Source: Alphaproteobacteria bacterium
GTDB lineage: Bacteria > Pseudomonadota > Alphaproteobacteria > CAISOG01
Reading direction: 5' to 3'
Length of the DNA stretch: 61,844 nt
Assembly (NCBI GenBank): GCA_044375625.1
Contig: JBILMH010000004.1
Coordinates: 1-61,844 of the forward strand
A model generated the notes under the pieces. It did no database searches. It was given only the letters and a program-made list of their open reading frames with translations, and was not told the origin of the DNA. This document shows, piece by piece, positions 5,147 to 52,360 of the stretch. Both the position numbers and the translations under genes were made by a program. The stretch's first letter is position 1. The number at the start of each line of letters is the position of its first letter.

Positions 5147-5165
5147 GAGGCGCCTTAGCGTGATT
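5147..5165 (+). repeat. Left copy of an imperfect 19-bp direct repeat (gaggcgccttagcgtgatt) bounding the kinase-like island
   Basis: Matches 9050-9068 (gaagcgcctaagcgtgata) at 16 of 19 positions. It lies directly after the GT4 stop codon and overlaps the stop of ORF 5155..5766. Confidence 0.45.
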
Positions 5166-5766
5166 GGCGGGCAGATACCGCCCTTTTGCTGGCCAATTTT
5201 ACAATTTTGTTGGCCGCGTTATTGGCCGCATTCGCCTCTCCACCATTTTCGGATGCAACCACCGCCGACACAACTTCAGGAGCGGGCAATAAATCATTAG
5301 CAAAGTCACTGGGCAGTTCGGGTAAGGAGGGAAGATCCTGAGCCAAGACATCACTGTTATAAAATTCCTGGGCATTTGCCATATTTTGGTTGGCCGCGCC
5401 CTCATTCCCCTTGGTTCCCCGCTCACCAAACAGCCCCAAAGTCCATTCTGGCAATACGCTGAACAACAGGCGTTTAGCAACCTTGCGCAACCCCTGCATA
5501 TCTTTCAGATAACCGCGCAGTTCGGGGTGATCCGCCACCCCATGACCGCGCCGCATCACCTCACATTGCAACAACACCAGATAGGCGTTCAGCCGCATGG
5601 AATCGATTTGCGCATGATAATCGGAACGGCCATTGGAAAAGGGCAAGGCGGCCGATTGATTCGTTACATCCAGAATAAATTGCCACAAGGTCTCATTGGA
5701 ATGGGCACGCATGTCCACCTCAATCGCATGCATCCAAAGTCTAGAAGTGGTAAATGGAGTACCCAT
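5155..5766 (-). CDS. Hypothetical protein with acidic/Asn-Ala-rich C-terminal tail
   Basis: 203-aa ORF with no competing frame and no motif I recognise. It is divergent from the kinase-like gene across an AT-rich 315-bp spacer. Confidence 0.55.
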   Translation of the reverse strand: MGTPFTTSRLWMHAIEVDMRAHSNETLWQFILDVTNQSAALPFSNGRSDYHAQIDSMRLNAYLVLLQCEVMRRGHGVADHPELRGYLKDMQGLRKVAKRLLFSVLPEWTLGLFGERGTKGNEGAANQNMANAQEFYNSDVLAQDLPSLPELPSDFANDLLPAPEVVSAVVASENGGEANAANNAANKIVKLASKRAVSARQSR

Positions 5767-5945
5767 GAAGCGGACGAAGGCTCCCTATGTGGTTAAGCAA
5801 TAAACCTAAAGTATTCTATATTAGTTAGAGGGGGCATGGTTCTGTCAACAAGATTTTAACATTTCCTTAAGATTTTCTGATGGTTTGAGGGTATAAAGCC
5901 CAGTGCACCCCCATAAACCAGGGGTTTGCACAGATTCAATAGCCA

Positions 5946-5975
5946 ATGCCCCTGTAAGAAATGCCCCCATAAGAA
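5946..5975 (+). repeat. Two tandem 15-bp direct repeats (atgcccctgtaagaa / atgcccccataagaa) in the divergent intergenic region
   Basis: Read directly from the sequence; 13/15 identical. Candidate operator for the flanking divergent genes. Confidence 0.5.
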
Positions 5976-6081
5976 ATGGTGGTCTGCCTGGCCATCGAAG
6001 GCCTCTTTAAGGATCTTTTCATGTTAACGCGCTATTCTGACCAAAGTCGGGGTGTATGTAGCAGCCTGTGTTGAGGTTAGG

Positions 6082-8418
6082 ATGAACCAGCGTATCGATA
6101 ACAACCAAAGTCCAGGATCGGCGCCAGAGAGGTGGACTGCTGGTGGTATGTCCGCTGGTCAACTGCCGCCCACGGCCTTAGGTAGTCCCGCAACCATCGA
6201 CAATCAAGGCAACAGCTTATCCAACACTGGGGGTGAACAGACGGGTGGGGCAATGGCGACTGATTCGGAACGTTCCTACACCCTTTCTGCTGGCGATCAC
6301 GATGCGGATTGGTTGGCTGAGGAGGCTGCCCTATTAGCGCAAAATGATGCGCAAGCCATTGAAGCCATCGATGCTCCAGAGATCCGCAATCCGATTGATT
6401 TTGTCATGGCGTCTTCCCGGCCAGTTGTCATCAATCTCAAGAAAAATTTTCGGGTGCTGGCACACCGCCCCTTACCTTTGTTTGATTCACCCTCCGCAAA
6501 AGCTTTTGAAGCATTGCATGTGCGGGATCGGGAACGAAAATATTACGCGTTGGTCAGCGACACACAAATTCCGCCAAGGGTGAATATGGTGTTGGGATTA
6601 ATGAACAGTGGAGTTCATGGATTGGTTTGCCCGAAGGATTGGGGGGTGATTGAATGGATCGGAGGCAAGCTGTGCTATGCGATTATTATGGAACAGCCAG
6701 GCACCAAAAGACTTGTGCGGGATTTGGCCGACACCTTTGTGCCCATCAGTGATAAGATGGTCAGCCGGTCGTTGTTGGCACCAGCCTATACGATGTTGTC
6801 AGAACTGGCATCGCGTGGGTATACCCATCGCGCGCTGCGCCTGACCAACATGTTTCTGAACGATGGCGCGGAAGCCTCTGTTGTTTTTGGAGAATGTTAC
6901 AGCAAGGTGCCAGGCTTTGATCAGCCCGCCGTTTTCGAACCAATCGAAAGCGCCCTGTGTCATCCAATTGCACGGGGTGAGGGGGGGATAAGTGATGATA
7001 TTTATGCCTTAGGGGTGTGTTTAGGAATTCTACTATGCGGCTACAACCCCTTTAATGGGCTGAGCGCGCAACAAATCATCGATCGCAAAATGACCATGGG
7101 CAGCTTTAATGCCTTAATGGGGCACGCCCGCGTTTCCCCGATGATGATGGAACCTCTTAGGGGTATGCTGGCCGATTCCCATAAGAATCGTTGGGGCCTG
7201 CGAGAGCTGGATAACTGGTTGAATGGACGCCCATCCTCACCGCATACCGCTGTATCGCGTCCAAAAGCGGCGCGGGCATTTAAGTTTTTGGGTGAGCCGT
7301 ATTACAGTTTGCCACATTTGGCGATCGCCCTTGGAAGATATTGGACACAAGGAGTTGAAGAAGTTCTTAAAAAGCCCATGGGCATATGGTTAAAAAGAAG
7401 CGCTAATGACGAAGAAAAAGCAGAATCTTTTGAAAAACTTATCGCTCAAGCCCCCATGGAAGATTCTGTTTCGCACGATGTTGTATTAAGTCGTACCTGT
7501 AACATTATGTATCCAGACGGACCAATATTTTTCCGTGGCGTGAACTTTTTGCCAGACGGATTTAAAAACATTTTGTTTCTTTGCCTACAAGACAGCAACT
7601 TTTACCCAATTGTTCATGATGTTATCGAAAGGCGGTTGCTAAGTTATTGGCTTAATCGCCAATCTAGCTTGCCTCTACAATATATCAACACCATGGAAAG
7701 TGTGGCGACATGGAAGAAATTTCTGAACACCCATGGCTTGGGGTTTGGGCTTGAGCGGTGTTTGTATGAAGCCAATCCTGGCATGCTGTGTTTAAGCCCG
7801 CTTGTTTTTCAACACACCGTCACGGATCTTGTAAGCTTATTGCAAACAATGGATGAGCTTGCTGTATCACAGCCCGATTTCTCAAAAGTGATCTTGGATA
7901 CACATTTGGCGGGTTTTATTCTGGCTGGTCTTCGCAATACAGGGCTTGGCTTTGCCAAAATGATTAATTTTGAGGATGATGCCCAAAAGCGGTTGGGATG
8001 GCTGGGGCTGCTGTCGTTGATTCAGCAAAAAAGACGTATGGGCCCATTACCAAATCTGGCCGCCGCAATTTACCCATGGCTCGCTCCAATACTACAGCTT
8101 TTTCACAGTCATAGCCGGCAGAATAGAATTAAGGAAGAGTTAGAAAAAGCCGTAAAAAACGGCTCTTTGACTGGCATGATGGCAATTTTGCAGAACTATG
8201 TGGATATTTTGAATGACAAAAACGGATTTTACAGAGCTCGCTATGAGTACCATGCTCTAAAAATAAAGAATGAAGAAATTAATTTGAGCAATAAAAAAAA
8301 GTTAGAATCAAATATTCCTATTGGTCAGCAAATCGTAGCTTTTGTTGCAGGGGCTACCGCAGCAGTTTTTATGTTGGTAGTTATGTACAGGGAATATGGT
8401 TGGGAATTTTTTCTATAA
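6082..8418 (+). CDS. Protein-kinase-like protein (probably catalytically degenerate) with a long C-terminal extension and C-terminal TM anchor
   Basis: Kinase-like core: YTHRALRLTNMFL in place of HRDLKPxN, then VVFGECYS where DFG is expected, then DDIYALGVCLGILLCGYNPF (subdomain IX-like). C-terminal hydrophobic segment IVAFVAGATAAVFMLVVMY. The ATG at 6082 is preceded by GAGG; the ORF track start at 6052 is a GTG. Confidence 0.65.
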   Translation: MNQRIDNNQSPGSAPERWTAGGMSAGQLPPTALGSPATIDNQGNSLSNTGGEQTGGAMATDSERSYTLSAGDHDADWLAEEAALLAQNDAQAIEAIDAPEIRNPIDFVMASSRPVVINLKKNFRVLAHRPLPLFDSPSAKAFEALHVRDRERKYYALVSDTQIPPRVNMVLGLMNSGVHGLVCPKDWGVIEWIGGKLCYAIIMEQPGTKRLVRDLADTFVPISDKMVSRSLLAPAYTMLSELASRGYTHRALRLTNMFLNDGAEASVVFGECYSKVPGFDQPAVFEPIESALCHPIARGEGGISDDIYALGVCLGILLCGYNPFNGLSAQQIIDRKMTMGSFNALMGHARVSPMMMEPLRGMLADSHKNRWGLRELDNWLNGRPSSPHTAVSRPKAARAFKFLGEPYYSLPHLAIALGRYWTQGVEEVLKKPMGIWLKRSANDEEKAESFEKLIAQAPMEDSVSHDVVLSRTCNIMYPDGPIFFRGVNFLPDGFKNILFLCLQDSNFYPIVHDVIERRLLSYWLNRQSSLPLQYINTMESVATWKKFLNTHGLGFGLERCLYEANPGMLCLSPLVFQHTVTDLVSLLQTMDELAVSQPDFSKVILDTHLAGFILAGLRNTGLGFAKMINFEDDAQKRLGWLGLLSLIQQKRRMGPLPNLAAAIYPWLAPILQLFHSHSRQNRIKEELEKAVKNGSLTGMMAILQNYVDILNDKNGFYRARYEYHALKIKNEEINLSNKKKLESNIPIGQQIVAFVAGATAAVFMLVVMYREYGWEFFL

Positions 8419-8436
8419 ATAGATTAGGATAAAATT

Positions 8437-8949
8437 ATGTCAAAATCTGACAAAGCATCTAAAAATCAAAATTCTGTCAGGAAAAGAAATTCCTATTTAT
8501 GGCTAAGCTGGGCAATGATTTTGTCTTTAGTAATATTTTCGCCGGCTTCCTTACCGCTACTTGGTATCGGCATGTTGCCCAGCATCATCACGGCTATTTT
8601 TGATCGCAAACCACGCAAAACCGCGTTGCAAACCATTGCTTGCGCCAATTTTTGTGGCGTTATAATTTTCGCGGCAGATCTTTGGAAAAATGACAACAAT
8701 TTGGAATATTTGGAAACCATCTTGCAAAATCACCTGAATTGGCTGATTATGTACGGATCAGCGCTGATGGGGCTGATGGCCTATATTGTGATCCCCCTCA
8801 TTATTGCCCTGCTGTTGGATGCCAAAAGCAGCATCGAATCATCCGATCTTAAAAGACAGATGCAGGCGTTGCGCGATGAGTGGGGGCCCGAGGTGGCGGA
8901 GGAGAATCCAGAGGTCAAATTTATGCCCCTAATCGGCGTTGAAAAGTAA
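8437..8949 (+). CDS. Small integral membrane protein (about 4 TM segments), partner of the kinase-like gene
   Basis: Hydrophobic stretches LWLSWAMILSLVIFSPASLPLLGIGMLPSIITAIF, ALQTIACANFCGVIIFAADL and LNWLIMYGSALMGLMAYIVIPLIIALLL. It starts 18 nt after the kinase-like stop and has the same low G+C. Confidence 0.6.
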   Translation: MSKSDKASKNQNSVRKRNSYLWLSWAMILSLVIFSPASLPLLGIGMLPSIITAIFDRKPRKTALQTIACANFCGVIIFAADLWKNDNNLEYLETILQNHLNWLIMYGSALMGLMAYIVIPLIIALLLDAKSSIESSDLKRQMQALRDEWGPEVAEENPEVKFMPLIGVEK

Positions 8950-9049
8950 CAACGGCAGGACGGCTTGCGGCATTGATTTGCCTGTTCCAATTCTGTCTGC
9001 ACCACGACCAGTTTTTTTTGGATTGGCTGCCGCCAAGATAAACTTGCCT

Positions 9050-9068
9050 GAAGCGCCTAAGCGTGATA
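9050..9068 (+). repeat. Right copy of the imperfect 19-bp direct repeat bounding the kinase-like island
   Basis: gaagcgcctaagcgtgata, 16/19 identical to 5147-5165. Lies 35 nt upstream of the atpH start. Confidence 0.45.
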
Positions 9069-9103: not shown

Positions 9104-9667
9104 ATGTTACAACGCTCTGAAAAACAGTTGGTTACACGCTATGCCGCGGCATGGGTGTCTGCCCTTGGCAACCGTCCAGCTGTTTGCCGCGACGATCTGC
9201 ATCGGTTGCAGGGGATTCAGCGTGACGTTCCCCCGTTTAAGCGCTTGATTGACGATCGCCTGATTGCCCCCGCTGATCGTATTCGTCTGTTGCAGCTGCT
9301 GTTCCCGAAATTGGGCTTGGACACTGTAACCCAGGCTTGGTTGCTGCAACTGGCCAGGCGGCGGCGGTTGTCGTTGCTGACTCCCTGTTTGGAGGAGGCG
9401 GGAGCCAGATTGTCGCTGGCCGATGGGCGGGAGCGCGCCCGCGTTATTTCCGCGCATCCTATTGAGGATGGCAATCGGACAAAAATTGCTGAGGCGTTGG
9501 CACGCTGGTTAAAATTGGCGCAGACGCCCGAGATTGCCTGGTCAGTCGATCCGCATCTGTTGACCGGATTCCGCTGTCTGATTGGTTCCTACCTACTTGA
9601 TTTCACGGGGGATACCAAGCTAAAGACCATTGCGCGAACGTTGGATGACGGGGTAAGCAGGTTATAG
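9104..9667 (+). CDS. atpH: F0F1 ATP synthase subunit delta (OSCP)
   Basis: 187 aa, immediately upstream of atpA. N-terminal LVTRYAAAWVSAL resembles the conserved RYA.AL segment. The call rests mainly on position and size. Confidence 0.75.
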   Translation: MLQRSEKQLVTRYAAAWVSALGNRPAVCRDDLHRLQGIQRDVPPFKRLIDDRLIAPADRIRLLQLLFPKLGLDTVTQAWLLQLARRRRLSLLTPCLEEAGARLSLADGRERARVISAHPIEDGNRTKIAEALARWLKLAQTPEIAWSVDPHLLTGFRCLIGSYLLDFTGDTKLKTIARTLDDGVSRL

Positions 9668-9709
9668 GTTTTGCAAACAATCGTATCTTAAGTTTTTAGG
9701 GGAAACGTT

Positions 9710-11251
9710 ATGGAAATTCGGGCATCAGAAATTACCCGCCTGTTGGAACAGGAAATTGCGCAGCTGGATCTGCCGCCACAATTGGCCGAGGTTGGTCAGG
9801 TTATCAGCGTTGGTGATGGTATCGCCCGCATCTACGGCCTAACCGGGGTGCAGGCTGGGGAAATGGTGGCCTTTGACAATGGGTTGCAGGGGATGGCGCT
9901 GAACCTGGAGCAGGACAATGTTGGGGTGGTCGTTTTTGGCGATGACAGCGGCATTAAAGAGGGCGATTTGGTGCGTCGGACTGGCAACATCGTTGATGTG
10001 CCAGTGGGCAAGGCCTTGTTGGGTCGGGTGGTTGATGGCCTGGGCAAGCCCATTGATGGCAAGGGCGCCATTAAGACCGATTTGCGCGCCCGGGTTGAGG
10101 TTAAGGCGCCTGGCATCATGCCGCGCCAATCGGTGCATGAGCCGGTTCAAACGGGGATTAAGGCGATTGACGCCCTGATTCCGATTGGTCGGGGGCAGCG
10201 GGAATTGATCATTGGTGACCGCCAGACCGGTAAGACTGCGGTGGCGATTGACACCATTTTGAACCAAAAAGCCGCCAATGATTTGTGCGATGCTGAGGGG
10301 CGGCCGCAGGACAAAATGTACTGCATTTACGTGGCCATCGGCCAAAAACGTTCCAGCGTTGCCCAGATCGTTAAGATCCTGGCGGAGCATGATGCGCTGG
10401 ACTACACCATTGTGGTGGCGGCGACCGCTTCTGACCCTGCACCGCTGCAATTTTTGGCACCCTATTCGGGTTGCAGCATGGGGGAATATTTCCGCGACAA
10501 CGGCATGCACGCCCTGATCGTCTATGATGACTTGTCGAAGCACGCGGTGGCCTATCGCCAAATGTCGCTGTTGCTGCGTCGTCCACCAGGGCGTGAGGCC
10601 TATCCGGGCGATGTGTTCTACCTGCACTCCCGCTTGCTTGAGCGTGCCGCTAAGCTGAACGCGGATCAGGGCAGCGGTTCGTTAACCGCCCTGCCGATCA
10701 TTGAAACCCAGGCGGGCGATGTGTCGGCCTATATCCCGACCAACGTCATTTCGATTACCGATGGCCAGATCTTTTTGGAGACGGAGCTGTTCTATAAGGG
10801 GATCCGCCCCGCGATTAACGTCGGTATCTCGGTCAGCCGGGTTGGATCCGCCGCGCAAATTAAGGCGATGAAGCAGGTGGCCGGCAAAATTAAGCTGGAA
10901 TTGGCGCAATACCGTGAAATGGCCGCCTTTGCCCAGTTTGCCAGCGATTTGGACGCTACCACCCAACGGCTGCTGCTGCGTGGGGAAAAGCTGACCGAAC
11001 TGCTAAAGCAACCGCAATATGCGCCGATGGTGGTGGAGATGCAGGTGGTGATGATCTACGCGGGTACCCGTGGCTATTTGGACACCATCAAAAGCAGTGA
11101 GGTGACGCGCTTTGAGACCGAGTTGGCGCATGAGTTGACCAGCAGGCATGCCGATTTGTTGGCCGCGATTCGCAACGAAAAGCAGCTTTCCAGCAGCTCT
11201 GAAGCCCAGCTGAAGACGGCCTTGGAAAAATTTGTCAGCGTGTTTGCGTAA
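9710..11251 (+). CDS. atpA: F0F1 ATP synthase subunit alpha
   Basis: Walker [16 protein letters not shown], plus [31 protein letters not shown] and other hallmark atpA segments. Confidence 0.97.
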
Positions 11252-11292
11252 TCGTGCACGCAGGTTAAGAACAAGGGGTTAGACAAAAGGCT

Positions 11293-12156
11293 ATGGCATC
11301 TCTTCAGGATCTCCGCACCCGTTTGCGCGGGGTGAAAGCGACCCAAAAGATTACGCAAGCCATGAAAATGGTGGCAGCGGCCAAGCTGAAGCGTGCGACC
11401 GATCGCGTGCATGGCAGCCAACCTTATGCCGCCGCCCTGGCCGGCTTGGTGCATCAATGCCTGGCCGAGGTTAATGCCGCCGATTGGCCAATCCTGCGCT
11501 CGGCTGGCGCGGATGAATACCCGCTGTATGTGATCGTTGGGGGTGAGCGCGGTTTGTGTGGCGCCTTTAACAACAACCTGCTGCGGGAGGTTCGGCGCAC
11601 CTTTCGCCGTCACCGCGCCCTGAACCAGCGCTGGCAAACCCTGTGCCTGGGCAAAAAACCGTTTGACGGCCTGGTGCGGGAATTTGCCAACAGCTTTTTG
11701 ATTCGTGAACCCCGTCCCAGCAGCCTTAGCCCCGTTGAGGCGGCCGAATTGGCGCAAAAGCTGGTCGATGGTTTTGTTAGCGGCCGCTACAGCTCGATCA
11801 ACCTGATATACAACCACATGGCCTCTGCCATTAAGCAGGATCCGACCCATAAGGCCTTATTGCCCCTGCATATGCCCGAACCCACCCCCACCAACGATCG
11901 CTTTGAATACAGCGATCCAAAGCCTGAATTGCTTGAAAAATTGCTGACCAGCCATTTGGCGGCGCAACTGTACAGCATCTCGTTGGAAAATGCCGCGGGG
12001 GAACAGGCGGCGCGGATGGTTGCCATGGATAACGCCACCCGTAATGCGGGCAAGATGATCAGCCGCCTTAGCCTGCAATACAACCGTCAGCGCCAGGCCA
12101 ATATTACCCGCGAAATCATCGAAATTGTGTCGGGGGCTGGTGCCCAGGCGGGCTAA
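11293..12156 (+). CDS. atpG: F0F1 ATP synthase subunit gamma
   Basis: MASLQDLRTRLRGVKATQKITQAMKMVAAAKLKRA N-terminus and C-terminal NRQRQANITREIIEIVSGA, both typical of gamma subunits. Confidence 0.95.
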   Translation: MASLQDLRTRLRGVKATQKITQAMKMVAAAKLKRATDRVHGSQPYAAALAGLVHQCLAEVNAADWPILRSAGADEYPLYVIVGGERGLCGAFNNNLLREVRRTFRRHRALNQRWQTLCLGKKPFDGLVREFANSFLIREPRPSSLSPVEAAELAQKLVDGFVSGRYSSINLIYNHMASAIKQDPTHKALLPLHMPEPTPTNDRFEYSDPKPELLEKLLTSHLAAQLYSISLENAAGEQAARMVAMDNATRNAGKMISRLSLQYNRQRQANITREIIEIVSGAGAQAG

Positions 12157-12216
12157 TCCAAGCCAGCCCATCCTGACACTCGCCGCCGCCACCCCATCCA
12201 GTTTAAGGAGCCTGCC

Positions 12217-12570
12217 ATGCCCCACGCCGTTATCGAATTTTCCGCCAACCTGACTGAGGTGATGCAGACCACCCACGCCACGGCGGCGGTGCATCAGGCC
12301 ATGATGGCCAGCGGTCTGTTTGCGGTGCCGGCCGACATCAAAACCCGCGCCTACGCCGCCCAGGACTTTTTGGTGGGAGAATTGGGGCAGCAGGGCAGCT
12401 TTGTTCACGTCACCGTCAGCCTGCTGGAGGGGCGCACCATCGCCCAGAAACAAGCCCTGACCGAACGGGTGCGCGACGCCCTGCAACAGCTGTTGCCCAC
12501 GGTGGAACAGCTTAGCGTTGATATCCGCGACATGACCAAAGATACCTATCGCAAGGCCGTGATCTCTTAA
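12217..12570 (+). CDS. 5-carboxymethyl-2-hydroxymuconate isomerase-like (tautomerase superfamily) protein
   Basis: MPHAVIEFSANL start (Pro2 after Met) and ~117-aa size are typical of CHMI family proteins. AAGGAG RBS upstream. Confidence 0.7.
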   Translation: MPHAVIEFSANLTEVMQTTHATAAVHQAMMASGLFAVPADIKTRAYAAQDFLVGELGQQGSFVHVTVSLLEGRTIAQKQALTERVRDALQQLLPTVEQLSVDIRDMTKDTYRKAVIS

Positions 12571-14484: not shown

Positions 14485-14628
14485 TCATTCCACTTTAGAA
14501 ATCCACAGTGCTGCAAATGTCACGATCTCTGTGATACGGTGCTCATGTACGTCCATGTACACTCCGCTCCGTTTCTCGACCTCGTAACATTTTCGCAGGC
14601 TGTATATTTCTAAATTGGAACGACTATA
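14480..14628 (+). mobile_element. MITE-like element, copy A (~149 bp, ~23-bp terminal inverted repeats, TA-flanked)
   Basis: The left end tatagtcattccactttagaaat matches the reverse complement of the right end, tatagtcgttccaatttagaaat, at 21/23. The whole element matches the reverse complement of 52432-52581, with about 9 substitutions and 1 indel by manual alignment. Confidence 0.85.
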
Positions 14629-14656
14629 GTTCCAGCGACTAGAGCGAAAATGGGCA

Positions 14657-14962: not shown

Positions 14963-15137
14963 TTCTGATGGCAGCCATCCCGCTTATAAACAGGGCGGGC
15001 AGGCCAACGGGGAGGGTGAGGGGTGGAGGAGGGGTTAATAGGGTGTATTTAGCCATACAACTTGTTGATTTGTCTATCGGTGCGTGACGCAGAAGAAAAC
15101 AGGTTGCATTTCATTTTAGAATCTAGCCCTGTGGCGT

Positions 15138-15178
15138 TACCAAAAGCGTTTTGATGCAAAGGCTTTGCCAGATCCTGT
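15138..15178 (+). repeat. 41-bp direct repeat, copy 1 (taccaaaagcgttttgatgcaaaggctttgccagatcctgt)
   Basis: 39/41 identical to 16229-16269. The two copies bracket the AT-rich zinc-ribbon/DUF4145-like gene. Confidence 0.9.
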
Positions 15179-15265
15179 GAAGATAGAAGATTACTTATTT
15201 TAGAGGTGGATATGTAGCACAGGATGATGATGTATGTCAGATATTCAACTTAAGATAATTAGCGC

Positions 15266-16168
15266 TTATTCCGCTTGTTTTTTCTTGGACTTAATCTTCA
15301 GCAAATTTGAAACAGCAGTGTTTAGTTGCGCATCATCTTTCATGGCTTGAGCCATTTTTTCCACTAATTCTGTTAGAACAACACGAATGTCTCTTGCTAA
15401 AAACAAGCATTCATCATCTGTTTTTGCATGTAATCCTTCGCTCAAGGCACTATGAAGAAGTACTAGTGGATTATGTCCGCTAATACGTAATGCTTGAGGA
15501 ATAGCGTGCTTAATTTTTTCTATTGCCTTACTAAATTGAGTTTCTTGTTTTGCAGATTTTAGATCTTCGATTAGTTTTTGATCAGCATTCAGCGTTTCTG
15601 AAACTCTAATTATTTGGTCAAAAATGTTATTTCGTCTTTCTTCGATTATTCGCCTGTAATAGCCAAAAGCACCTATACCAAGTCCTTGTGTTTCGCATCG
15701 CCTTCCTTTGAAGAAATAATCTTTTTCCGATCCAAGTAAACTAACTAATCTTGCGGGGGTTGGCGATCCAAAAGCAGGTCTTTCACCATATTTTACGATG
15801 GACGCTAACGCTGTCTGCTTATCAAGGGTGGCCTCAATAGAAAATGTTTTTCTAACACTTTCACAGTTCTTGCATATATATATTAAAAATTCATGCGAAT
15901 TACCTGATGATCCCAAGTAAATATGATCGTCTTTTGTAGCAAAGAACCGTGGGCCATTACATTGGCCGTCGCTACAATGCAAATTGATTTCAGGTAGGCT
16001 GATTCCTTGAGATGCATTTGATGCATTATAACGATAACAAGATTCAGTCTCTACATGAACGATTTTATCGGGGGGCGTTTCTTCTAGAAATGATTTCATA
16101 GTGATGGGAGTTGCCTCATGAGTAGGCTTTTCTACACTTTTTGCAGACAGCAAATTCTCGTTGTTCAT
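15266..16168 (-). CDS. Hypothetical protein: N-terminal Cys-rich (zinc-ribbon-like) region plus C-terminal DUF4145-like helical domain
   Basis: CSDGQCNGPRFF...CKNCESVRKTF gives two CxxC-type pairs. FFKGRRCETQGLGIGAFGYYRRIIEERR resembles the DUF4145 core. The ATG at 16168 is preceded by GAGGG, while the longer ORF to 16234 runs into the repeat. 20/60 G+C in 15541-15600. Confidence 0.6.
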   Translation of the reverse strand: MNNENLLSAKSVEKPTHEATPITMKSFLEETPPDKIVHVETESCYRYNASNASQGISLPEINLHCSDGQCNGPRFFATKDDHIYLGSSGNSHEFLIYICKNCESVRKTFSIEATLDKQTALASIVKYGERPAFGSPTPARLVSLLGSEKDYFFKGRRCETQGLGIGAFGYYRRIIEERRNNIFDQIIRVSETLNADQKLIEDLKSAKQETQFSKAIEKIKHAIPQALRISGHNPLVLLHSALSEGLHAKTDDECLFLARDIRVVLTELVEKMAQAMKDDAQLNTAVSNLLKIKSKKKQAE

Positions 16169-16228
16169 TTTACCCTCACAGGATTTGAACCTAAAAACAC
16201 TAGGTGAAACATACACGGCCTTTCGGGC

Positions 16229-16269
16229 TACCAAAAGCGTTTTGATGCAAAGGCTTTGCCGGAACCTGT
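16229..16269 (+). repeat. 41-bp direct repeat, copy 2
   Basis: taccaaaagcgttttgatgcaaaggctttgccggaacctgt. It abuts the stop codon of the GIY-YIG gene (16270). Confidence 0.9.
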
Positions 16270-16521
16270 TTAGGGCGCCCTAAAACGCAGTTTTTGAAAT
16301 CTTCGACCCGCTTGTGTTTTCAAATAAGCTTCAAAATCCTGCGCTGTCTTTTTATCACTAAACGCGAAATAGGCATGAAGTTTCCATGGTTGATACTTTG
16401 TGGTGTGCCCAGAATTCCCTTCGGCATTATGTTCTATCAGCCTACGTTTTAAATCCTCGGTAAAACCTGTGTAGAATTTTTCAGGGTGGCTGGCACTTTC
16501 AAGGATGTAGACGTACCACAT
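16270..16521 (-). CDS. GIY-YIG nuclease family protein (small stand-alone URI domain)
   Basis: WYVYILESASHPEKFYTGFTEDLKRRLIEHN is the GIY...YxG...R..EH pattern of GIY-YIG domains. 83 aa. Confidence 0.8.
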   Translation of the reverse strand: MWYVYILESASHPEKFYTGFTEDLKRRLIEHNAEGNSGHTTKYQPWKLHAYFAFSDKKTAQDFEAYLKTQAGRRFQKLRFRAP

Positions 16522-16587
16522 CTGTATTCCTTATCTATTCCGTCACAATCCAATCCTCGCTTTGCTCGGGTTTGTGACGAGAACCTC

Positions 16588-16622
16588 GTCAATCCCAAGA
16601 AAGCGTCGCTTTCTGGATTGAC
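16588..16622 (-). terminator. Long imperfect hairpin immediately 3' of tRNA-Pro (possible terminator/processing structure)
   Basis: On the minus strand, gtcaatccagaaagcg / cgctttcttgggattgac form a ~14-bp stem with a 2-nt bulge, 3 nt after the tRNA 3' end. There is no clear U-tract. Confidence 0.35.
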
Positions 16623-16625
16623 GGG

Positions 16626-16702
16626 TGGTCGGAGTGGCGGGATTCGAACCCACGACCCCTAGCACCCCATGCTAGTGCGCTACCAGACTGCGCTACACTC
16701 CG
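16626..16702 (-). tRNA. tRNA-Pro (anticodon GGG), CCA encoded
   Basis: The reverse complement folds by hand as CGGAGTG TA GCGC AGTCTGGTA GCGC A CTAGC ATGGGGT GCTAG GGGTC GTGGG TTCGAAT CCCGC CACTCCG A CCA. The anticodon loop AT-GGG-GT carries G37. Confidence 0.9.
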
Positions 16703-17898: not shown

Positions 17899-18052
17899 GT
17901 CTTCCACCCTATCCCACCCGTTTGATGGTGGCGTGGCAGCTTTGCAGTTTTTCGAATTTGGATTGAACATTTTCTAAGCAGGGTCGGTGAGAACGCACCC
18001 ATAGCCAACAAATGAATTGAAAACCGTTACGTCATACTTTATACTTTATTTT

Positions 18053-19033
18053 ATGAATTACGACAAGCTTACACAAAAGAAACAGCAGCTGGATGGCTTC
18101 AGGCCATTGCCCCCCGAACTCGCCCGCAATCTGGACGATTGGTTCAAGGTTGAGCTTACCTACACCAGCAACGCTATTGAGGGGAACACCCTGACCCGCC
18201 GTGAAACAGCGGTGGTGATTGAAAAAGGGTTGACCGTTGGGGGCAAAAGTCTCAGGGAGCATTTGGAGGCCACCAACCACGCGCATGCGCTGGATTTTGT
18301 GCGATCCCTTATCGAAAAGAAACCGTCACAATTGACGGCCAAGGATGTGCTGGGAATTCACAACCTTATCTTAAAGGGGTTGGATAACGAAAACGCTGGT
18401 CATTATCGCAGCGTGCCGGTTCGCATTTCGGGGGCAGCGGTGGTTTTGCCCAACCCGCGCAAAGTGCCAGACCTGATGGACGATTTTTTGCGCTGGCTTA
18501 CAGCCGAACACGATTTGCATCCCGTCGCCTTTGCGGGGGAAGCGCATTACCGTCTGGTAAGCATTCACCCATTTGTGGACGGCAACGGACGCACGGCGCG
18601 ATTGCTGATGAACCTGCTGCTCATGATGGTTGGCTATCCGCCCGCCATTATCCGCAAGCGTGACCGACTGGCTTATATCGCTTCACTTGAAAAGGCGCAG
18701 CTTGGTGGATCGAAAGAACCTTATGAGAAAATCATCGCCAAGGCGACGGAACGATCGCTTGATATTTACCTTACAGCGGCGCGTGGAGAGTCTGCCGCAG
18801 GGGACGATGGGGATAGCGACGACTTGCTGAAAATCGGCGAACTGGCAAAAGCCGCAGGGGAAACCGTGCCGACCATCCGCTACTGGACAAAAGAAGGGTT
18901 GCTGGAGGTGGCGGAGGTCACCGGGTCAGGCTATCAGCTTTACGCCGCCGACATGGTGAACCGTTGCCAGCAAATTAAAAAGCTGAAGGGCGATCGATTC
19001 ACCCTTCAAGAAATTAAGCAGCGGCTTTCGTAA
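18053..19033 (+). CDS. Fic family protein with N-terminal inhibitory motif and C-terminal MerR-type HTH
   Basis: Fic motif HPFVDGNGRTARLLMN. Upstream SNAIEG matches (S/T)xxxE(G/N). The C-terminal LLKIGELAKAAGETVPTIRYWTKEGLL is MerR-like. ATG 18053 (MNYDKL) is preferred over the upstream alternative start at 18017. Confidence 0.85.
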   Translation: MNYDKLTQKKQQLDGFRPLPPELARNLDDWFKVELTYTSNAIEGNTLTRRETAVVIEKGLTVGGKSLREHLEATNHAHALDFVRSLIEKKPSQLTAKDVLGIHNLILKGLDNENAGHYRSVPVRISGAAVVLPNPRKVPDLMDDFLRWLTAEHDLHPVAFAGEAHYRLVSIHPFVDGNGRTARLLMNLLLMMVGYPPAIIRKRDRLAYIASLEKAQLGGSKEPYEKIIAKATERSLDIYLTAARGESAAGDDGDSDDLLKIGELAKAAGETVPTIRYWTKEGLLEVAEVTGSGYQLYAADMVNRCQQIKKLKGDRFTLQEIKQRLS

Positions 19034-19089
19034 GAAACTTGGTTTAAGTTGCCGCGAACTTGGATATTGCAACACTTTTATCGAGGCAA

Positions 19090-20479: not shown

Positions 20480-20498
20480 TAACATCAGGAGCTGGAGG
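20480..20498 (+). repeat. Exact 19-bp direct repeat, copy 1 (taacatcaggagctggagg)
   Basis: Identical to 21924-21942. Together they bracket the 2-gene AT-rich cassette. Confidence 0.9.
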
Positions 20499-20568
20499 TG
20501 TGCGTTACGCCAGCCTCTTGAAGTTTCTCTCGCAGAAGCCTTGAAGTAGCCAGAAGAAGTTTGATATT

Positions 20569-21246
20569 TCACATCACCACTTTAGCTATATCGCTCAGGC
20601 CACCTAAAATGAGTTTCTTTGGCACTCCTGGTGCGGCGTTAATCTCCAGCGTGTCAGTAAGTGTGTGATTGACATTATTTACGGCAAACGCATCAGCATC
20701 TTTAGCAAAAGCGATCCTATGTTCTTTCTCATCTGAGAAACGTTTGTTTTTGGACATTATAATTTTGTCAGGACAAACGTATCTTACCCCAGGCTCTTCA
20801 TCAAAGTCGTAGTATTCAACATTATCAGATAAAATTTTTCTATTTTTGATATTGTGCGCGGATTTTCTTAAATGTCGTGAAATACGGTTACTAAATTCTT
20901 GTACATCTGATATTTCAATGCAGCCGTCAGCACCAAACTTTTGGAACAAGGTTTTGCTGAGCTCAAGGCTTGTGCAAAAAACAAATACACGGTCTGGTCG
21001 CCTTACTCGTGATATTAGCCCGCGATGGCCTTTAAGTTTTTGGTTATTTGCTGAGATTGTAATTTCTAAACCATTCGACGGCATGTAAACATTAGCATCT
21101 TCAGTAATATCAATTCTTGCCAAATCTTCGCATGATAGAAAATAGGACAGCGTGTTGAAGAAAACTTCTCCATTATGCAAAAATTTTTCCAAATGTGACT
21201 TGTCACAAAAATACTTAAAAACAGAATATTTTCTATGATTCAGCAT
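20569..21246 (-). CDS. Hypothetical protein, DUF2971-like by motif order
   Basis: VFKYFCDKSHLEKFLHNGEVFFNTLSYF, VFVFCTSLELSKTLFQKFGADGCIEI and KNKRFSDEKEHRIAF follow the order of conserved blocks I associate with DUF2971. Its start overlaps the upstream stop (TAATG). Low G+C. Confidence 0.55.
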   Translation of the reverse strand: MLNHRKYSVFKYFCDKSHLEKFLHNGEVFFNTLSYFLSCEDLARIDITEDANVYMPSNGLEITISANNQKLKGHRGLISRVRRPDRVFVFCTSLELSKTLFQKFGADGCIEISDVQEFSNRISRHLRKSAHNIKNRKILSDNVEYYDFDEEPGVRYVCPDKIIMSKNKRFSDEKEHRIAFAKDADAFAVNNVNHTLTDTLEINAAPGVPKKLILGGLSDIAKVVM

Positions 21247-21728
21247 TATTCGCTGCGCTCCTTATCGGCAGCTTCCCAATATATATCTTCTATTGCCCTT
21301 GAGGAAATTAATCCGCAATTCATAAAATCTAGGAAATTGCCACAATCCCTCAAAGTTTGAATGCTGTACCGTGTTGATACGGCAAATGCTTTAGGATCAG
21401 ATGCGGCATGACTAGAGATGGCATTGTCATCGTCATAGAATGATTGAAACTCATTCCACTCATCGGCTGTTTTTAGCGGAAGCTTTCTCAATTTCTTTTT
21501 CTGCTCACCAACTAATTGTTTATGCATCATATATGAGCTTAATAAATGAGCAGGAATGTTTTTAATACGTTCAAGCCAAACTACTAGGGGGAGGCCTATA
21601 GCCAAGGCCAAAAATGCGACAAGAAAATTCGCGTCAGCGGTTTCTGAAATTATCCATGCTAGCAAAGCACTAGTAATTAGTGAGAATACCCACCTTAAAG
21701 TTTTGAATTTTAGCTGTACGAATTCCAT
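21246..21728 (-). CDS. Hypothetical membrane protein (2 N-terminal TM helices plus a soluble C-terminal domain)
   Basis: WVFSLITSALLAWIISE and FLVAFLALAIGLPLVVWL are hydrophobic helices. 21/60 G+C in 21301-21360. First gene of the 2-gene cassette. Confidence 0.6.
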   Translation of the reverse strand: MEFVQLKFKTLRWVFSLITSALLAWIISETADANFLVAFLALAIGLPLVVWLERIKNIPAHLLSSYMMHKQLVGEQKKKLRKLPLKTADEWNEFQSFYDDDNAISSHAASDPKAFAVSTRYSIQTLRDCGNFLDFMNCGLISSRAIEDIYWEAADKERSE

Positions 21729-21923
21729 AATGTTTACCCAATATGTTTTCCTAAAATTTTCTCTGGAGATAGCTGTGCACTTGTTTTCTCACGAGTGCAC
21801 GGCCTCGGTAGAGAGAACGCCATGCAAAAGAATTAAGATACGCACAAAAAGACCAGAATTTCTATGCAGGCTACTCATATTTCAGCAGGATTACAAGAAA
21901 TGATTAACCTGCTGATTACTTTC

Positions 21924-21942
21924 TAACATCAGGAGCTGGAGG
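21924..21942 (+). repeat. Exact 19-bp direct repeat, copy 2, overlapping the last ~6 nt of tRNA-Ser
   Basis: taacatcaggagctggagg. Positions 21937-21942 belong to the tRNA-Ser 3' end. Confidence 0.9.
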
Positions 21943-22028
21943 AGACGGAGGGATTCGAACCCTCGATACGGTATAACCCGTATAACGGTTTAGCAAACCG
22001 TCGCCTTCAGCCGCTCGGCCACGTCTCC
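21937..22028 (-). tRNA. tRNA-Ser (anticodon GCU), long variable arm
   Basis: The reverse complement is GGAGACG TG GCCGAGCGGCTGAAGGCG ACGGT TTGCTAA ACCGT TATACGGGTTATACCGTATC GAGGG TTCGAAT CCCTC CGTCTCC T CCA. Confidence 0.9.
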
Positions 22029-49236: not shown

Positions 49237-50556
49237 ATGAACCCTGCTGCCAGCTCTATCCCCGCCTCCGCCAACCCTGGTGCATCGCCCGCGCTGTCGC
49301 CGCTGACCAATCCCCATTTGATTGGGTTGGAGGCGCCTGTTCACCAGCTGCAACAGGCCTTGACGGCGGGGCGGTTGGCGGGATCCTGGTTGCTGACGGG
49401 GGAAGCGGGGGTGGGTAAGGCGACGTTGGCATTGCGGCTGGCTCGCTATCTGTTGGCGGGATCACTGGGTGCACCCCAACCTGGTCAGGATGTTTTTGCC
49501 AACCACAGCCCCGCCGCCGATTCGGTACAGGACTTGGGCTTGTTTGGGGATCTGTTGGCCAGCCCCGCGCCCGAACTTTTCCCTGCTTCAACCCCTGATC
49601 CAGCCCCTCAGGCCGTCTCTCAGCAAGCCGCCGTTCCCGACCTAAAGACAGAAACCGCCTTTGCCCTGGCCGCTGACCACCCGGTTTTTCAGCAGGTCGC
49701 CAATTTGTCGCATCCCGATTGCTGCGTGGTGATGCCCGAAGCCACTGGCCAAAGCGGCAGGTTGACCATCACCATTGAGCAAATTCGCCGCTTGACCGAT
49801 TTTCTGCGGCTGGCGGCGGGGCATGACGGCTGGCGCGTCGCCCTGGTCGATCAGGCGCACAGCATGACCCGTCAGGCGCAAAACGCCCTGCTGAAATCTC
49901 TTGAGGAGCCGCCCGCCCAAACCCTAATCCTGCTGACCACCCCGCTGCCCAGCGCGCTGTTGCCGACCATTCGTTCGCGCTGCCGCCGCCTGAGTATTCC
50001 TGCCCTTAGCGGGGATCAGGTGCGGCAGGGGTTGGCGTTGCTGTACCCCGATTATCCGCCCTTGCCCACGGATCTGCAGGCCAGCTTTCGCCTGACCACC
50101 ATTGGCCAGGCCGCCCGCTTTTTGGTGACGTTATGGCCTGGCTATCAATCGCTGTTAGAGCTATTGGGGCGCAGCGGCGAACCCAATTTTCATTTGTTGC
50201 AGCAATGGCGCAAAAGCCTTAGCCCGCTGACCAGTGGCAGCACCCTGCCGCTGGAGTCAGAACTGATGAACCTGTTGATGCAGCGGTGGTTGCGCAGCTT
50301 TGCCCTAAGCGCCGACCAAAGCGCTGCCGCAACGCCCACCGCTCCCCTGTTGGCGCAGGAGGCGGCGTTGTTCTCACGGCTTAGCCTAGGCAATGGTGGA
50401 CAAGCCTCCATCAGCGGCCACGCCCTTGGCCAGCGCCAGGCCGCCGTGACCCGCTGGTTGCAGGAGGGGGCGGCCAGCAACCTTGATCCCGCTGCCATCA
50501 GCTGGCAAGCCCTAACCCTGATTTACGGCCTCAACCCCGCCAACCAAGCCGCCTAG
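49237..50556 (+). CDS. holB: DNA polymerase III subunit delta' (with long insert)
   Basis: GRLAGSWLLTGEAGVGKATLALRLARYLL, NALLKSLEEPP and TIRSRC. Confidence 0.88.
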   Translation: MNPAASSIPASANPGASPALSPLTNPHLIGLEAPVHQLQQALTAGRLAGSWLLTGEAGVGKATLALRLARYLLAGSLGAPQPGQDVFANHSPAADSVQDLGLFGDLLASPAPELFPASTPDPAPQAVSQQAAVPDLKTETAFALAADHPVFQQVANLSHPDCCVVMPEATGQSGRLTITIEQIRRLTDFLRLAAGHDGWRVALVDQAHSMTRQAQNALLKSLEEPPAQTLILLTTPLPSALLPTIRSRCRRLSIPALSGDQVRQGLALLYPDYPPLPTDLQASFRLTTIGQAARFLVTLWPGYQSLLELLGRSGEPNFHLLQQWRKSLSPLTSGSTLPLESELMNLLMQRWLRSFALSADQSAAATPTAPLLAQEAALFSRLSLGNGGQASISGHALGQRQAAVTRWLQEGAASNLDPAAISWQALTLIYGLNPANQAA

Positions 50557-50561
50557 GCCGC
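50538..50561 (+). repeat. 24-bp direct repeat, left copy (last holB codons plus stop: cgccaaccaagccgcctaggccgc)
   Basis: 21/24 identical to 52337-52360. It ends one nucleotide before the stop codon of the first cassette gene (50562). Confidence 0.8.
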
Positions 50562-50960
50562 CTATTTTTTTACAAAATGCGCTTTTTCTGCAAGTTCTGT
50601 CGCTACCACCCTCATTAGTGATTTTTCAGATGGCACAGCTTTGATATTCGCATGTTTTGGATGCCCAACACCGTCTACCAGCACTTGCAAGAAACCTCCC
50701 ATGCCGTTAGCAATTTTTTGAACCTCAGCTACCTTCAGATCCGCACGAGCCAACACCTCTTTATCCGTTCTAATTCTAGAACCAATATCCCAGATACTTT
50801 CCTCAGAACACTCTGTTACTAAAAATACAGAAATCTCATTAGGATATTTAGAGTTAGGCATAAAGACATTGTGCTTAATGGGATTGCTCCTAAGCCAATC
50901 CCGTTCAAAAATGTAGCGGGCAATTTTGTCAGCATCAGAAGCGGGGTAATCTAGAGTCAA
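50562..50960 (-). CDS. Hypothetical protein, third gene of the AT-rich three-gene operon
   Basis: 132-aa ORF. Its TTG start overlaps the upstream TGA (TTGA). No motif recognised. Very low G+C. Confidence 0.6.
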   Translation of the reverse strand: MTLDYPASDADKIARYIFERDWLRSNPIKHNVFMPNSKYPNEISVFLVTECSEESIWDIGSRIRTDKEVLARADLKVAEVQKIANGMGGFLQVLVDGVGHPKHANIKAVPSEKSLMRVVATELAEKAHFVKK

Positions 50961-51520
50961 CTGGCAAAACCCTCTATTAAATTCAGCAAATTCAATACTT
51001 CTTCAGGCAATTTGTTGCCGAACTGAACATCGCCAAATAAGCGACCATGTGGGCTAACACCCCCCCATTCTATCCGATCATTTTCATTAACACCAATCAC
51101 GACATGATAGCCACGTTTTTTCCAGACCATTGACAGAGCGCCATCTGGTTCAGCACAAATTTCTGGGCAAGAAATATGTTCTGGCAAAAAACTCAAAAAC
51201 AAAAGAGTTTTTTCAAAAAAAATCTCTTTAACTGGTTCGGCATCATAGCCATCCCAATCTCGAGCAGAATAATTTTCTCTTATAAAATTCAATTCACCAA
51301 ATATATCTCTTTTCCTAAATGAAATTGATTGATCTTTTTCTTTATCAATTTTCTCTAAAGATTTTGATATGAACTTAGATGATGGGTTGTATACATCACG
51401 CACATCATGGCCTGTACGTGACAATCTATAACGACCTCTATTAATAGAAAAATTTGTCTGAGCAGAAAAATTTCTGCTAAATTCCATTGGTATTTCATAT
51501 GTTGCACAATTTACTCTCAT
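50957..51520 (-). CDS. Hypothetical protein with DWDGYDAEP motif, second gene of the operon
   Basis: 187-aa ORF. Its ATG overlaps the upstream TGA (ATGA). The C-terminal half has ARDWDGYDAEPV...AEPDGALSMVW, a pattern I have seen in uncharacterised small bacterial and phage proteins. Confidence 0.65.
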   Translation of the reverse strand: MRVNCATYEIPMEFSRNFSAQTNFSINRGRYRLSRTGHDVRDVYNPSSKFISKSLEKIDKEKDQSISFRKRDIFGELNFIRENYSARDWDGYDAEPVKEIFFEKTLLFLSFLPEHISCPEICAEPDGALSMVWKKRGYHVVIGVNENDRIEWGGVSPHGRLFGDVQFGNKLPEEVLNLLNLIEGFAS

Positions 51521-52284
51521 GAAAATAAATCCTGCGCATTTGGTAAATTAGAGAAAAATATATGGTTTTTAAAAAGACGCAATCTTTCTAAGGTGTCATA
51601 TATATTGCTATAATTTTCATATTCGAAATAATCTTGGTCGTTTTTTACGTCAATATCCATAATAATTTTTAATTTTTCTTCTTCTGGCTTTATTGTCAAT
51701 AAAACAACCGCTTGCGCTGTGTATTTTAATGAATTTAAAACGTACCTTGAAAAAATTTCTGAAACACCTATTTCAGAACTATCATAATCTGATCTGCCAC
51801 GAAAAAACGATCCCATTAGAAGATTTTTATGCCAATCTTCCTTATTCAAATAAAAACTGTTTATATATCTTAATGATAAATCGTTTATTTTTGATACAAT
51901 AATATTATTAGAAAAAATTTCCCAATATTTCTTATACTCATCAGAAAAATTTTCCCAGGAAATATAAGGTTTCAACTTGTTAAAAATGAGTTTATTTTTG
52001 CTGCAATGCAAATAATTCTGAATATCATCAGAAAACAAAAAACCTATCTTTTCGTTTGTGCTATTATGTGAAAAATTTGTTCCATCTTCACCAAAGTTAA
52101 TGGCGGAATGAAATTGTCGCCATTCTTTTTTGTTTGGATAAAAACCTTCGAAAGCCTTAAAAATTTTTTCAAGGCTTTCTGTTGATACATCTTTATTATG
52201 CTCAACGCCTACACTGATAACCGCCTCCTCAATCGGAGGAGATTTAAGCTTCGGATACTTTCTTCTTAACGCAAGTTCGGACAT
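51517..52284 (-). CDS. Hypothetical protein, TIGR04255-like N-terminus, first gene of the operon
   Basis: 255-aa ORF. YPKLKSPPIEEAVISVGV resembles the start of the uncharacterised TIGR04255 family (recognised from memory, not searched). 16/60 G+C in 51541-51600. Confidence 0.65.
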   Translation of the reverse strand: MSELALRRKYPKLKSPPIEEAVISVGVEHNKDVSTESLEKIFKAFEGFYPNKKEWRQFHSAINFGEDGTNFSHNSTNEKIGFLFSDDIQNYLHCSKNKLIFNKLKPYISWENFSDEYKKYWEIFSNNIIVSKINDLSLRYINSFYLNKEDWHKNLLMGSFFRGRSDYDSSEIGVSEIFSRYVLNSLKYTAQAVVLLTIKPEEEKLKIIMDIDVKNDQDYFEYENYSNIYDTLERLRLFKNHIFFSNLPNAQDLFS

Positions 52285-52336
52285 GATAACTCCCTATGCC
52301 TACAATAGCACAAAGAAAATGAAATTCCATGGGAAT

Positions 52337-52360
52337 CGCCAGCCAGGCGGCCTAGGCCGC
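52337..52360 (+). repeat. 24-bp direct repeat, right copy (cgccagccaggcggcctaggccgc)
   Basis: A relic-like copy of the holB 3' end including TAG. It lies 52 nt beyond the start codon of the cassette's first gene. Confidence 0.8.

Follow-up and report, generated by a model that had tools for sequence, protein, structure and literature searches.

The analyzed window comprises 61,844 nucleotides (contig JBILMH010000004.1, positions 1 to 61,844 of the forward strand, assembly GCA_044375625.1) originating from an uncultured freshwater alphaproteobacterium of the GTDB lineage CAISOG01, and this study deals with short AT-rich segments of this window that are bracketed by direct repeats. Four such segments had been proposed in an original prediction made from the sequence alone, which regarded them as foreign cassettes inserted by site-specific recombination, flanked by attachment (att) sites and devoid of a recombinase gene. 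The first is a kinase-like block of three genes located between a GT4 gene and atpH. The second segment is associated with a small GIY-YIG gene in a variable region linked to tRNA-Pro(GGG), the third adjoins tRNA-Ser(GCT) and the fourth follows holB.

All four repeat pairs were recovered at exactly the predicted positions and with the predicted identities (Table 1), pair 2 being extendable to 51 nt. The foreign composition was likewise confirmed, since GC contents of 0.473 for the first segment and of 0.341 to 0.387 for the remaining three contrast with values of 0.58–0.60 in the flanks. Moreover, one copy of each pair is located at the 3' end of a resident gene, as had been claimed. In pair 1 this copy lies 10 nt past the GT4 stop codon and within the 3' end of a minus-strand open reading frame (ORF), in pair 2 it is found directly 3' of the GIY-YIG stop codon, and in pairs 3 and 4 it comprises the ends of tRNA-Ser and holB plus a few downstream nucleotides. 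The repeats of segments 2, 3 and 4, each copying the end of its host gene, are unrelated to one another and do not resemble attC sites, again in agreement with the original prediction. Each repeat occurs in only two copies within the window, the chance expectation for the given pattern being 0.00–0.02. Domain names assigned to the segments earlier proved less reliable: Pkinase (E = 0.014) and DUF2971 (E = 0.12) represent weak matches, and DUF4145 was not detected. Recombinase, transposase and relaxase domains, which had been reported as missing, were indeed found in none of the window genes, as deduced from direct Pfam scans and from precomputed Pfam tables of window-identical contigs.

Table 1. 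Repeat pairs, target genes and cargo of the repeat-bracketed segments in the analyzed window.
Feature	Position	Strand	Remarks
Repeat pair 1 (kinase-like block)	5147-5165 / 9050-9068		16/19
Repeat pair 2 (cassette 2)	15138-15178 / 16229-16269		39/41
Repeat pair 3 (cassette 3)	20480-20498 / 21924-21942		19/19
Repeat pair 4 (cassette 4)	50538-50561 / 52337-52360		21/24
Distal repeat R of cassette 2	15128..15178	-	Upstream of ftsB; 39/41 over the core, 88% over 51 nt; identical to the native copy of empty type I sites
Cassette 2 cargo	15179..16218	-	300-aa Zn-ribbon and helical protein (15266-16168); GC 0.373
Proximal repeat R of cassette 2	16219..16269	-	Displaced last 13 codons and stop (TGSGKAFASKRFW*) of the 80-aa GIY-YIG allele
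83-aa GIY-YIG gene	16270..16521	-	GC 0.425; Pfam GIY-YIG 7.5e-17; swapped allele beginning right after tRNA-Pro; third, diverged tail copy before R
tRNA-Pro(GGG)	16626..16702	-	Proximal boundary of the variable GIY-YIG/cassette 2 region
attR-type repeat of cassette 3	20480..20498	-	Perfect copy, then the sequence directly following the single copy in empty sites
Cassette 3 cargo	20499..21923	-	160-aa transmembrane (TM) protein (21246-21728) and 225-aa protein (20569-21246); GC 0.387; absent in L140 and L143
attL-type repeat of cassette 3	21924..21942	-	Last 6 nt of the tRNA (CCTCCA) and 13 nt; 19/19 with 20480-20498; sole copy in L140 and L143
tRNA-Ser(GCT), target gene of cassette 3	21937..22028	-	ARAGORN; Rfam tRNA 60.1 bits
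holB (DNA polymerase III delta'), target of cassette 4	49237..50556	+	Pfam DNA_pol3_delta2 1.4e-34
attL-type repeat of cassette 4	50538..50561	+	Last 19 nt of holB (ANQAA*) and 5 nt; identical to the single copy in L152, L155, L156 and L159
Cassette 4 cargo	50562..52336	-	Three-gene operon: 255 aa (TIGR04255 family), 187 aa and 132 aa; GC 0.341
attR-type repeat of cassette 4	52337..52360	+	Three foreign mismatches; holds the 14-bp palindrome GCGGCCTAGGCCGC; 21/24 to the proximal copy

Repeat-flanked insertions at gene ends

In order to interpret the segments, many metagenome contigs of the same species and of a sister species were used as comparators (designated by L numbers). Core DNA identity among the conspecific contigs amounts to 97–100%, so that insertions and deletions are readable at single-nucleotide resolution. 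No synteny remained with species outside the genus, and exact-protein look-ups with tmk and atpH retrieved window-like strains only.

At tRNA-Ser, the conspecific contigs L140 and L143 represent empty sites in which the tRNA gene is followed by a single copy of the 19-mer and then by the sequence found past the distal copy of the window. Relative to these contigs, the window carries an exact insertion of 1444 bp flanked by perfect repeats. Other contigs harbor an Eco47II-type restriction-modification (R-M) system, a 283-aa gene or a 145-aa gene at the same site. Furthermore, an island of more than 10 kb encoding two methylases, an HNH protein, a helicase and a truncated serine recombinase was observed in L149; its junction is located exactly at the end of tRNA-Ser, that is, at a position differing from the cassette 3 junction. 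Across all contigs, the site shows at least six occupancy states. Joining the ends of cassette 3 reconstructs the putative attP junction ...GGCGTAACGCACACCTCCAGCTCCTGATGTTAGAAAGTAATCAGC.... Two contigs of 1.55 kb carrying cassette 3 were evaluated as possible circular forms and rejected, since their terminal ORF fits the chromosomal context and not a circle junction. The 19-mer matched viral contigs only once, inside a coding region without a tRNA, and this match was attributed to chance.

Cassette 4 is missing from the four conspecific contigs L152, L155, L156 and L159, in which holB is followed by metG without intervening genes and a single repeat copy is present that is identical to the proximal copy of the window. 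The same succession of holB and metG was found in two further conspecific contigs, for which gene order only was considered, and the sister-species contig L118 also features an empty site with a single copy. The distal copy in the window deviates from the proximal one by three mismatches on the cassette side that are absent from the native empty sites, indicating that this part of the repeat was brought in with the cassette as an attP-type sequence. The stretch that is fully identical between both copies comprises 11 bp (GCCTAGGCCGC). When the cassette ends are joined (...GGGAATCGCCAGCCAGGCGGCCTAGGCCGCCTATTTTTTTAC...), an 18-bp perfect palindrome (AGGCGGCCTAGGCCGCCT) is reconstructed, whereas the palindrome of the native attB extends over only 8 bp. 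Foreign mismatches, the 11-bp identical core and the palindromic attP together fit the core site of a recombinase; they rule out a target-site duplication and render RecA-mediated integration at holB unlikely. The holB gene is not known as an att site. No spacer separates the stop codon of the 132-aa gene from the holB repeat.

The interval between tRNA-Pro(GGG) and ftsB is more variable. In six contigs (L010, L012, L013, L015, L017, L037) cassette 2 is absent and the GIY-YIG gene is directly followed by ftsB. All of them except L017 carry an 80-aa allele with one in-frame copy of the repeat R as gene end; L017 lacks R, its GIY-YIG gene being an allele of 85 aa that belongs to the other type. 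Between the same repeats, L004, L006 and L014 contain a different cargo, namely a DUF6988 gene and a 127-aa gene. A clean insertion is represented by the sister-species contigs L162 and L163, in which an intact 80-aa gene is followed by R plus 34 nt, the 300-aa cargo, again R plus 34 nt, and ftsB, corresponding to direct repeats of approximately 75 nt; R also reaches about 75 nt in L004. Both cargos found at this site share their first 26 nt, which include a 9-bp inverted repeat of the R start, and the reconstructed attP junction reads ...CTATCTTCACAGGATCTGGC...R+34...TTTTTAGGTTCAAATCC.... An assignment of the shared 26-nt end (GGTTCRAATCC...) to a tRNA fragment was rejected, as Rfam/Infernal searches at E<=5 found nothing. 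Viral contigs contained no match to the GIY-YIG repeat.

The GIY-YIG gene itself behaves like a cassette, being low in GC (Table 1) and subject to allele swaps. The 80-aa and 83-aa alleles share no DNA homology, whereas their flanks are 97–98% identical, and homology breaks off at a distance of 3 nt from the tRNA-Pro(GGG) 3' end. At 16270-16625, alleles of 80 aa and of 83/85 aa, encoding markedly diverged proteins, replace each other, and L016 lacks any GIY-YIG gene. The locus in the window represents a more reworked state than that of L162 and L163. Based on the empty, swapped, gene-less and alternatively occupied states, the whole interval from tRNA-Pro to ftsB is a multi-event hotspot.

Assessment of the kinase-like block led to a different result. 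All-against-all comparison of the window at a spacing of 500–5000 nt yielded 103 pairs of at least 16/19, as opposed to two pairs of 19/19, six of at least 21/24 and one of at least 39/41. Moreover, 0.75% of random window pairs matched the score of pair 1 in a boundary-window test. Pair 1 is therefore at chance level, whereas pairs 2 to 4 are not. The three genes of the block occupy the same position in strain L002 (approximately 95% DNA identity) and in the sister species L038 (70–85% protein identity). In L038, the atpH leader retains the atpH-proximal copy of the repeat; no conservation is seen for the GT4-proximal copy, which is located in the 3' coding end of a 203-aa ORF. Given this lack of conservation and the 103 equally good pairs, the repeat around the block is a coincidence, a possibility that the original prediction had itself raised. 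An att-flanked cassette was thus rejected for 5147..9068, and the block represents a conserved, faster-evolving region rather than a recent cassette.

Pair 1 is also the only one for which an origin of the repeats by chance, as generic motifs without any link to mobility or as target-site duplications of a transposase, can be maintained. Such an origin is refuted for pairs 2 to 4, and as a general explanation it is highly improbable. A real miniature inverted-repeat transposable element (MITE) does occur twice in the window. However, the cassettes encode no transposase, the palindromic holB core is the only terminal inverted repeat found in them, repeat lengths of 19, 24 and 42 to ~75 nt are unlike transposon duplications, and the native target is not matched exactly by the distal holB copy. 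In addition, pairs 2 to 4 are far above chance, and the empty sites tie the repeats to insertions.

Proposed integration mechanism and recombinase

Cassettes 2, 3 and 4 probably represent islets resembling cis-mobilizable elements (CIMEs), which arose by site-specific insertion and whose recombinase was lost or acts in trans. Exact insertions, single-copy empty sites, foreign repeat sequence and alternative cargo were observed in a window that encodes no recombinase. In the mechanism proposed, conservative site-specific recombination would join a chromosomal attB, formed by a resident gene's 3' end, with a cassette-borne attP imitating this 3' end. Insertion would leave attL and attR as direct repeats and the target gene intact. 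The targets would be tRNA-Ser(GCT), the small GIY-YIG gene in the tRNA-Pro(GGG)-linked region and holB, and the recombinase would later have disappeared from the islets or be supplied by another element. A tyrosine-type enzyme is presumed to have acted as the inserter, its present whereabouts likewise being a matter of deduction. No new exchange mechanism is needed to account for the observations.

Inspection of relatives for empty sites and different cargo, as recommended in the original prediction, revealed single-copy empty sites at all three loci and alternative cargo at two of them (tRNA-Ser and GIY-YIG). Considering also the foreign mismatches at holB, the att-type interpretation of the repeats stands for cassettes 2, 3 and 4 and fails for the kinase-like block. 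Within a natural population, all three sites act as hotspots of integration and are empty or differently loaded depending on the strain.

Integration without a dedicated recombinase was considered as well. Circularized or linear DNA sharing short homology with the chromosome could have been taken up by RecA-dependent or homology-facilitated illegitimate (Campbell-type) recombination, in which case empty sites would represent deletions between the repeats. The GIY-YIG repeats of 42 to ~75 nt are long enough for homologous recombination, and neighboring islets without repeats show that whole-segment homologous replacement is common in the population. However, RecA usually requires longer identical stretches than the 11 bp at holB and the 19 bp at tRNA-Ser, a perfectly palindromic attP such as that of holB would be expected of a recombinase site, and all three targets are gene 3' ends left intact, which is a classic integrase signature. 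Homology-driven integration is hence judged quite unlikely as the origin of the cassettes.

Several results weigh against site-specific insertion with subsequent loss or outsourcing of the recombinase. At tRNA-Ser, a variant carrying a HinfI-type R-M system shows the left junction of the window and no distal repeat. Among approximately 20 conspecific contigs, no integrase was detected at the three sites other than the truncated serine recombinase of the tRNA-Ser island, which uses a different junction, and no circular form or attP junction was found among the contigs. Flanking repeats were not found at four further variable spots, namely a Band7 gene with its 139-aa neighbor, a gene in the atpA-atpG spacer, an S66 peptidase gene and an insertion at tRNA-Thr (none significant in the latter case). 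The length of the GIY-YIG repeats (42–75 nt), which would also permit homologous recombination, adds to these points. Finally, the 300-aa cargo shows 89% identity to its counterpart in the sister species (L162/L163), a divergence similar to or above that of the flanks, so that its insertion would be old and some of the apparently empty sites may be secondary deletions from repeat to repeat.

A possible, although unlikely, extension of site-specific insertion is that the cassettes are active minimal units, consisting of cargo and an attP mimicking a host gene end, that are moved in trans by recombinases encoded elsewhere or by co-resident elements. They would then constitute a dispersed cassette economy comparable to integron cassettes, operating with several unrelated att sites. 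The presence of three independent att-flanked, recombinase-free units of 1.0–1.8 kb within 37 kb is in line with this assumption, as are the two cargos of the GIY-YIG site, which have their att and a 26-nt end in common, the intact state of both att copies, the recurrence of cargo families beside the same kind of tRNA in distant genomes and the very compact arrangement in which the stop of the 132-aa gene abuts the holB core. Conversely, neither a recombinase partner nor circular junctions among the contigs were found, nor was an integrase-bearing element sharing its att with the cassettes, and the insertion of the 300-aa cargo appears to be old. The same pattern would be expected if larger elements had simply decayed, and a cargo family member located beside an integrase in a provirus fits decay. 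Dead remnants and units still moved in trans both fit the data. If the recombinase does act in trans, the units would provide a simple model for integrase-less cassette mobility, and a genome-streamlined alphaproteobacterium would possess a dispersed, integron-like swapping of defense and accessory genes at several unrelated sites.

Cargo genes and further variable islets

Functional assignment of the cargo of all three cassettes by means of PADLOC, Pfam and NCBIfam was restricted to the first gene of the cassette 4 operon, whose 255-aa product belongs to TIGR04255 (NCBIfam, 7.1e-23), a sporadically distributed family. The proteins of cassette 3 received no significant Pfam or PADLOC assignment, recombinase or transfer domains were not detected in any of the cassette proteins in these three databases, and sequence searches of the PDB with the cargo were empty.

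The 300-aa protein of cassette 2 belongs to an unannotated family (A1) with 1889 homologues, showing approximately 50% identity across phyla and no Pfam match. Members feature four invariant Cys residues and a conserved helical C-terminal domain. An AlphaFold2 (AF2) model of the protein, although of high confidence (pLDDT 86), had no significant match in the PDB. A homologue with 53% identity, encoded in a distant metagenome-assembled genome (MAG; L164), is a low-GC single gene directly following tRNA-Pro(GGG). Within IMG/VR, one homologue adjoins a tyrosine integrase at the contig end of the provirus L179 and another directly follows tRNA-His in the provirus L177. In most of the 17 viral loci containing the family, the GC content of the gene is below that of its surroundings, and in a temperate Rhizobium phage it is a typical moron, inserted on the opposite strand beside the capsid gene.

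Regarding cassette 3, a homologue of the 225-aa protein (61% identity) is located after tRNA-Ser in another genus. Relatives of this family were not found in viral contigs, and the model of the protein was too poor for a structure search. The MAG containing the homologue of the 225-aa protein (L165) also features, at 3577-3736 and just upstream of its intact tRNA-Ser(GGA), two incomplete copies of the 5' end of this tRNA (GTGGCCGAGTG...) that are spaced 72–77 nt apart. The positions of cargo homologues at tRNAs, beside an integrase and at provirus ends suggest that the cargo genes are accessory genes riding at the att-proximal ends of integrative elements. Moreover, its occurrence as a phage moron and at prophage ends makes the 300-aa family a candidate for an anti-phage or exclusion protein.

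Repeat-flanked cassettes are not the only variable features of the window, for which reason the architecture described as recurrent in the original prediction was overstated. Its composition profile displays at least seven low-GC patches, and since the repeat-flanked design applies to three of about eight variable spots, it is not universal in this genome. Three of the four cassettes originally counted are real, strain-variable insertions, pair 1 being a chance repeat, and at least four more low-GC or variable islets exist without flanking repeats.

Among these islets, a Band7/SPFH gene together with a 139-aa TM gene (23868-25465) is strain-variable and represents a segment replacement with its left boundary in the 5' end of the cytochrome b561 gene. 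The variant segment takes in the first ~15 codons of the latter gene, whose N-terminus consequently differs by strain (214 vs. 209 aa). In the atpA-atpG spacer (11252-11292), the window lacks a gene; other strains hold a low-GC gene of 133–212 aa with internal repeats and without Pfam match (L002 15099-15578, L012 7526-8164, L013 7661-8128), the exchange being an exact stop-to-start replacement. A low-GC islet encoding an LD-carboxypeptidase (S66; 58070-59190) is missing in several conspecific contigs, which possess 13 nt instead. Furthermore, terC and a zinc-ribbon gene (54955-56419) are missing in sister-species contigs, and L002 harbors a 793-aa gene without Pfam match (6189-8633) that is inserted 5–9 nt past the 3' end of tRNA-Thr. 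The stretch between tRNA-Thr and tRNA-Ser (17899-20458) encodes a Fic-MerR fusion and an AAA_14/DUF4143 ATPase, the latter neighboring tRNA-Ser and strongly matching the PADLOC candidate system PDC-S01 (E 4e-138). This stretch resembles a defense island or defense-type hotspot.

The MITE-like element has a length of approximately 143 nt and terminal inverted repeats (TATAGTYRTTCC..TTTAGAAAT). Its two copies (14503-14645, minus strand; 52434-52577, plus strand) are about 93% identical, and each is located at a TATA site. The first is absent from L002, L003 and L012 and the second from L152 and L156, indicating that the element was recently mobile. Five tandem 13-nt units (CCAACACCCACAG-like) were noted at 57052-57116, upstream of a Tim44-like gene and within a minus-strand ORF. 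In the region 9104-12570, a CHMI-family gene and an ABC-F gene stand downstream of atpH-atpA-atpG in place of atpD-atpC, so that this lineage appears to possess a split F1 operon.

Comparison with known systems

Cassettes 2 to 4 belong to a known kind of element and provide a new, well-resolved population example of it. The finding fits known biology, that is, CIME-like remnants at hotspots, with one quarter of the original claim being a chance repeat. It illustrates at nucleotide resolution how accessory genes vary in natural freshwater populations of an uncultured alphaproteobacterium with a small genome, namely at fixed integration hotspots located at gene 3' ends, where empty, occupied and alternatively occupied alleles coexist. 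Two aspects go slightly beyond routine, namely the use of the holB 3' end as att site with a palindromic reconstructed attP, and the persistent association of cargo families with the same type of tRNA site across distant genomes even though no integrase is present.

Borders of the Xer/dif type (integrative mobile elements exploiting Xer recombination, IMEX, and pdif modules), with a 28-bp XerC/XerD site, were compared by eye with the dif consensus, no formal dif model being run, and showed no likeness at the cassette borders. Transposons, insertion sequences (IS) and MITEs differ from the cassettes, which possess repeats of 19 to ~75 nt and no terminal inverted repeats except for the palindromic holB core. 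With prophage morons and att-proximal genes the 300-aa family has in common that its members are found at a phage capsid gene, a provirus integrase and a tRNA; unlike morons, the gene stands alone between att repeats in the window, with no phage genes left.

Integron cassettes are likewise small units of one to three genes that lack their own recombinase, are inserted site-specifically and provide interchangeable cargo at the same site. In contrast to them, the cassettes in the window share no attC structure, have no GTTRRRY at their junctions and possess unrelated repeats copying host gene ends; the reconstructed attP sequences fold modestly (z-scores of -1.7 to -2.3). Moreover, there is neither intI/attI nor an array, the cassettes being single and dispersed.

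The tRNA-linked tycheposon islands of Prochlorococcus are built from att-flanked remnants of integrative elements (bioRxiv 10.1101/2020.12.28.424599). They resemble the present case in that both occur in streamlined aquatic bacteria at fixed hotspots beside tRNA genes, with strain-variable content including defense genes, cargo separated by att or partial-tRNA repeats, and integrases that are rare or transient. Features of tRNA-targeting islands were found at tRNA-Ser, comprising insertion at the 3' end, duplication of a tRNA segment (last 6 nt) and a hotspot with variable cargo. Unlike tycheposons, the window cassettes encode no tyrosine or large serine recombinase and no hallmark genes of replication or excision, the tRNA contributes just 6 nt to the repeat, and two of the three sites are ends of protein genes.

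CIMEs are decayed integrative and conjugative or integrative and mobilizable elements (ICEs/IMEs) that retain attL and attR and whose integrase was lost or is supplied by another element (PMC5704250). Their definition refers to remnants of identified ICEs in Firmicutes, whereas neither a parent element nor a cognate integrase was found for the cassettes, which in addition measure only 1.0–1.8 kb and include holB among their targets. As in CIMEs, however, cassettes 2 to 4, and not the kinase-like block, adjoin the 3' end of a target gene with attL and attR as borders, are devoid of genes for integration or transfer and reside at sites that are also used by other elements.

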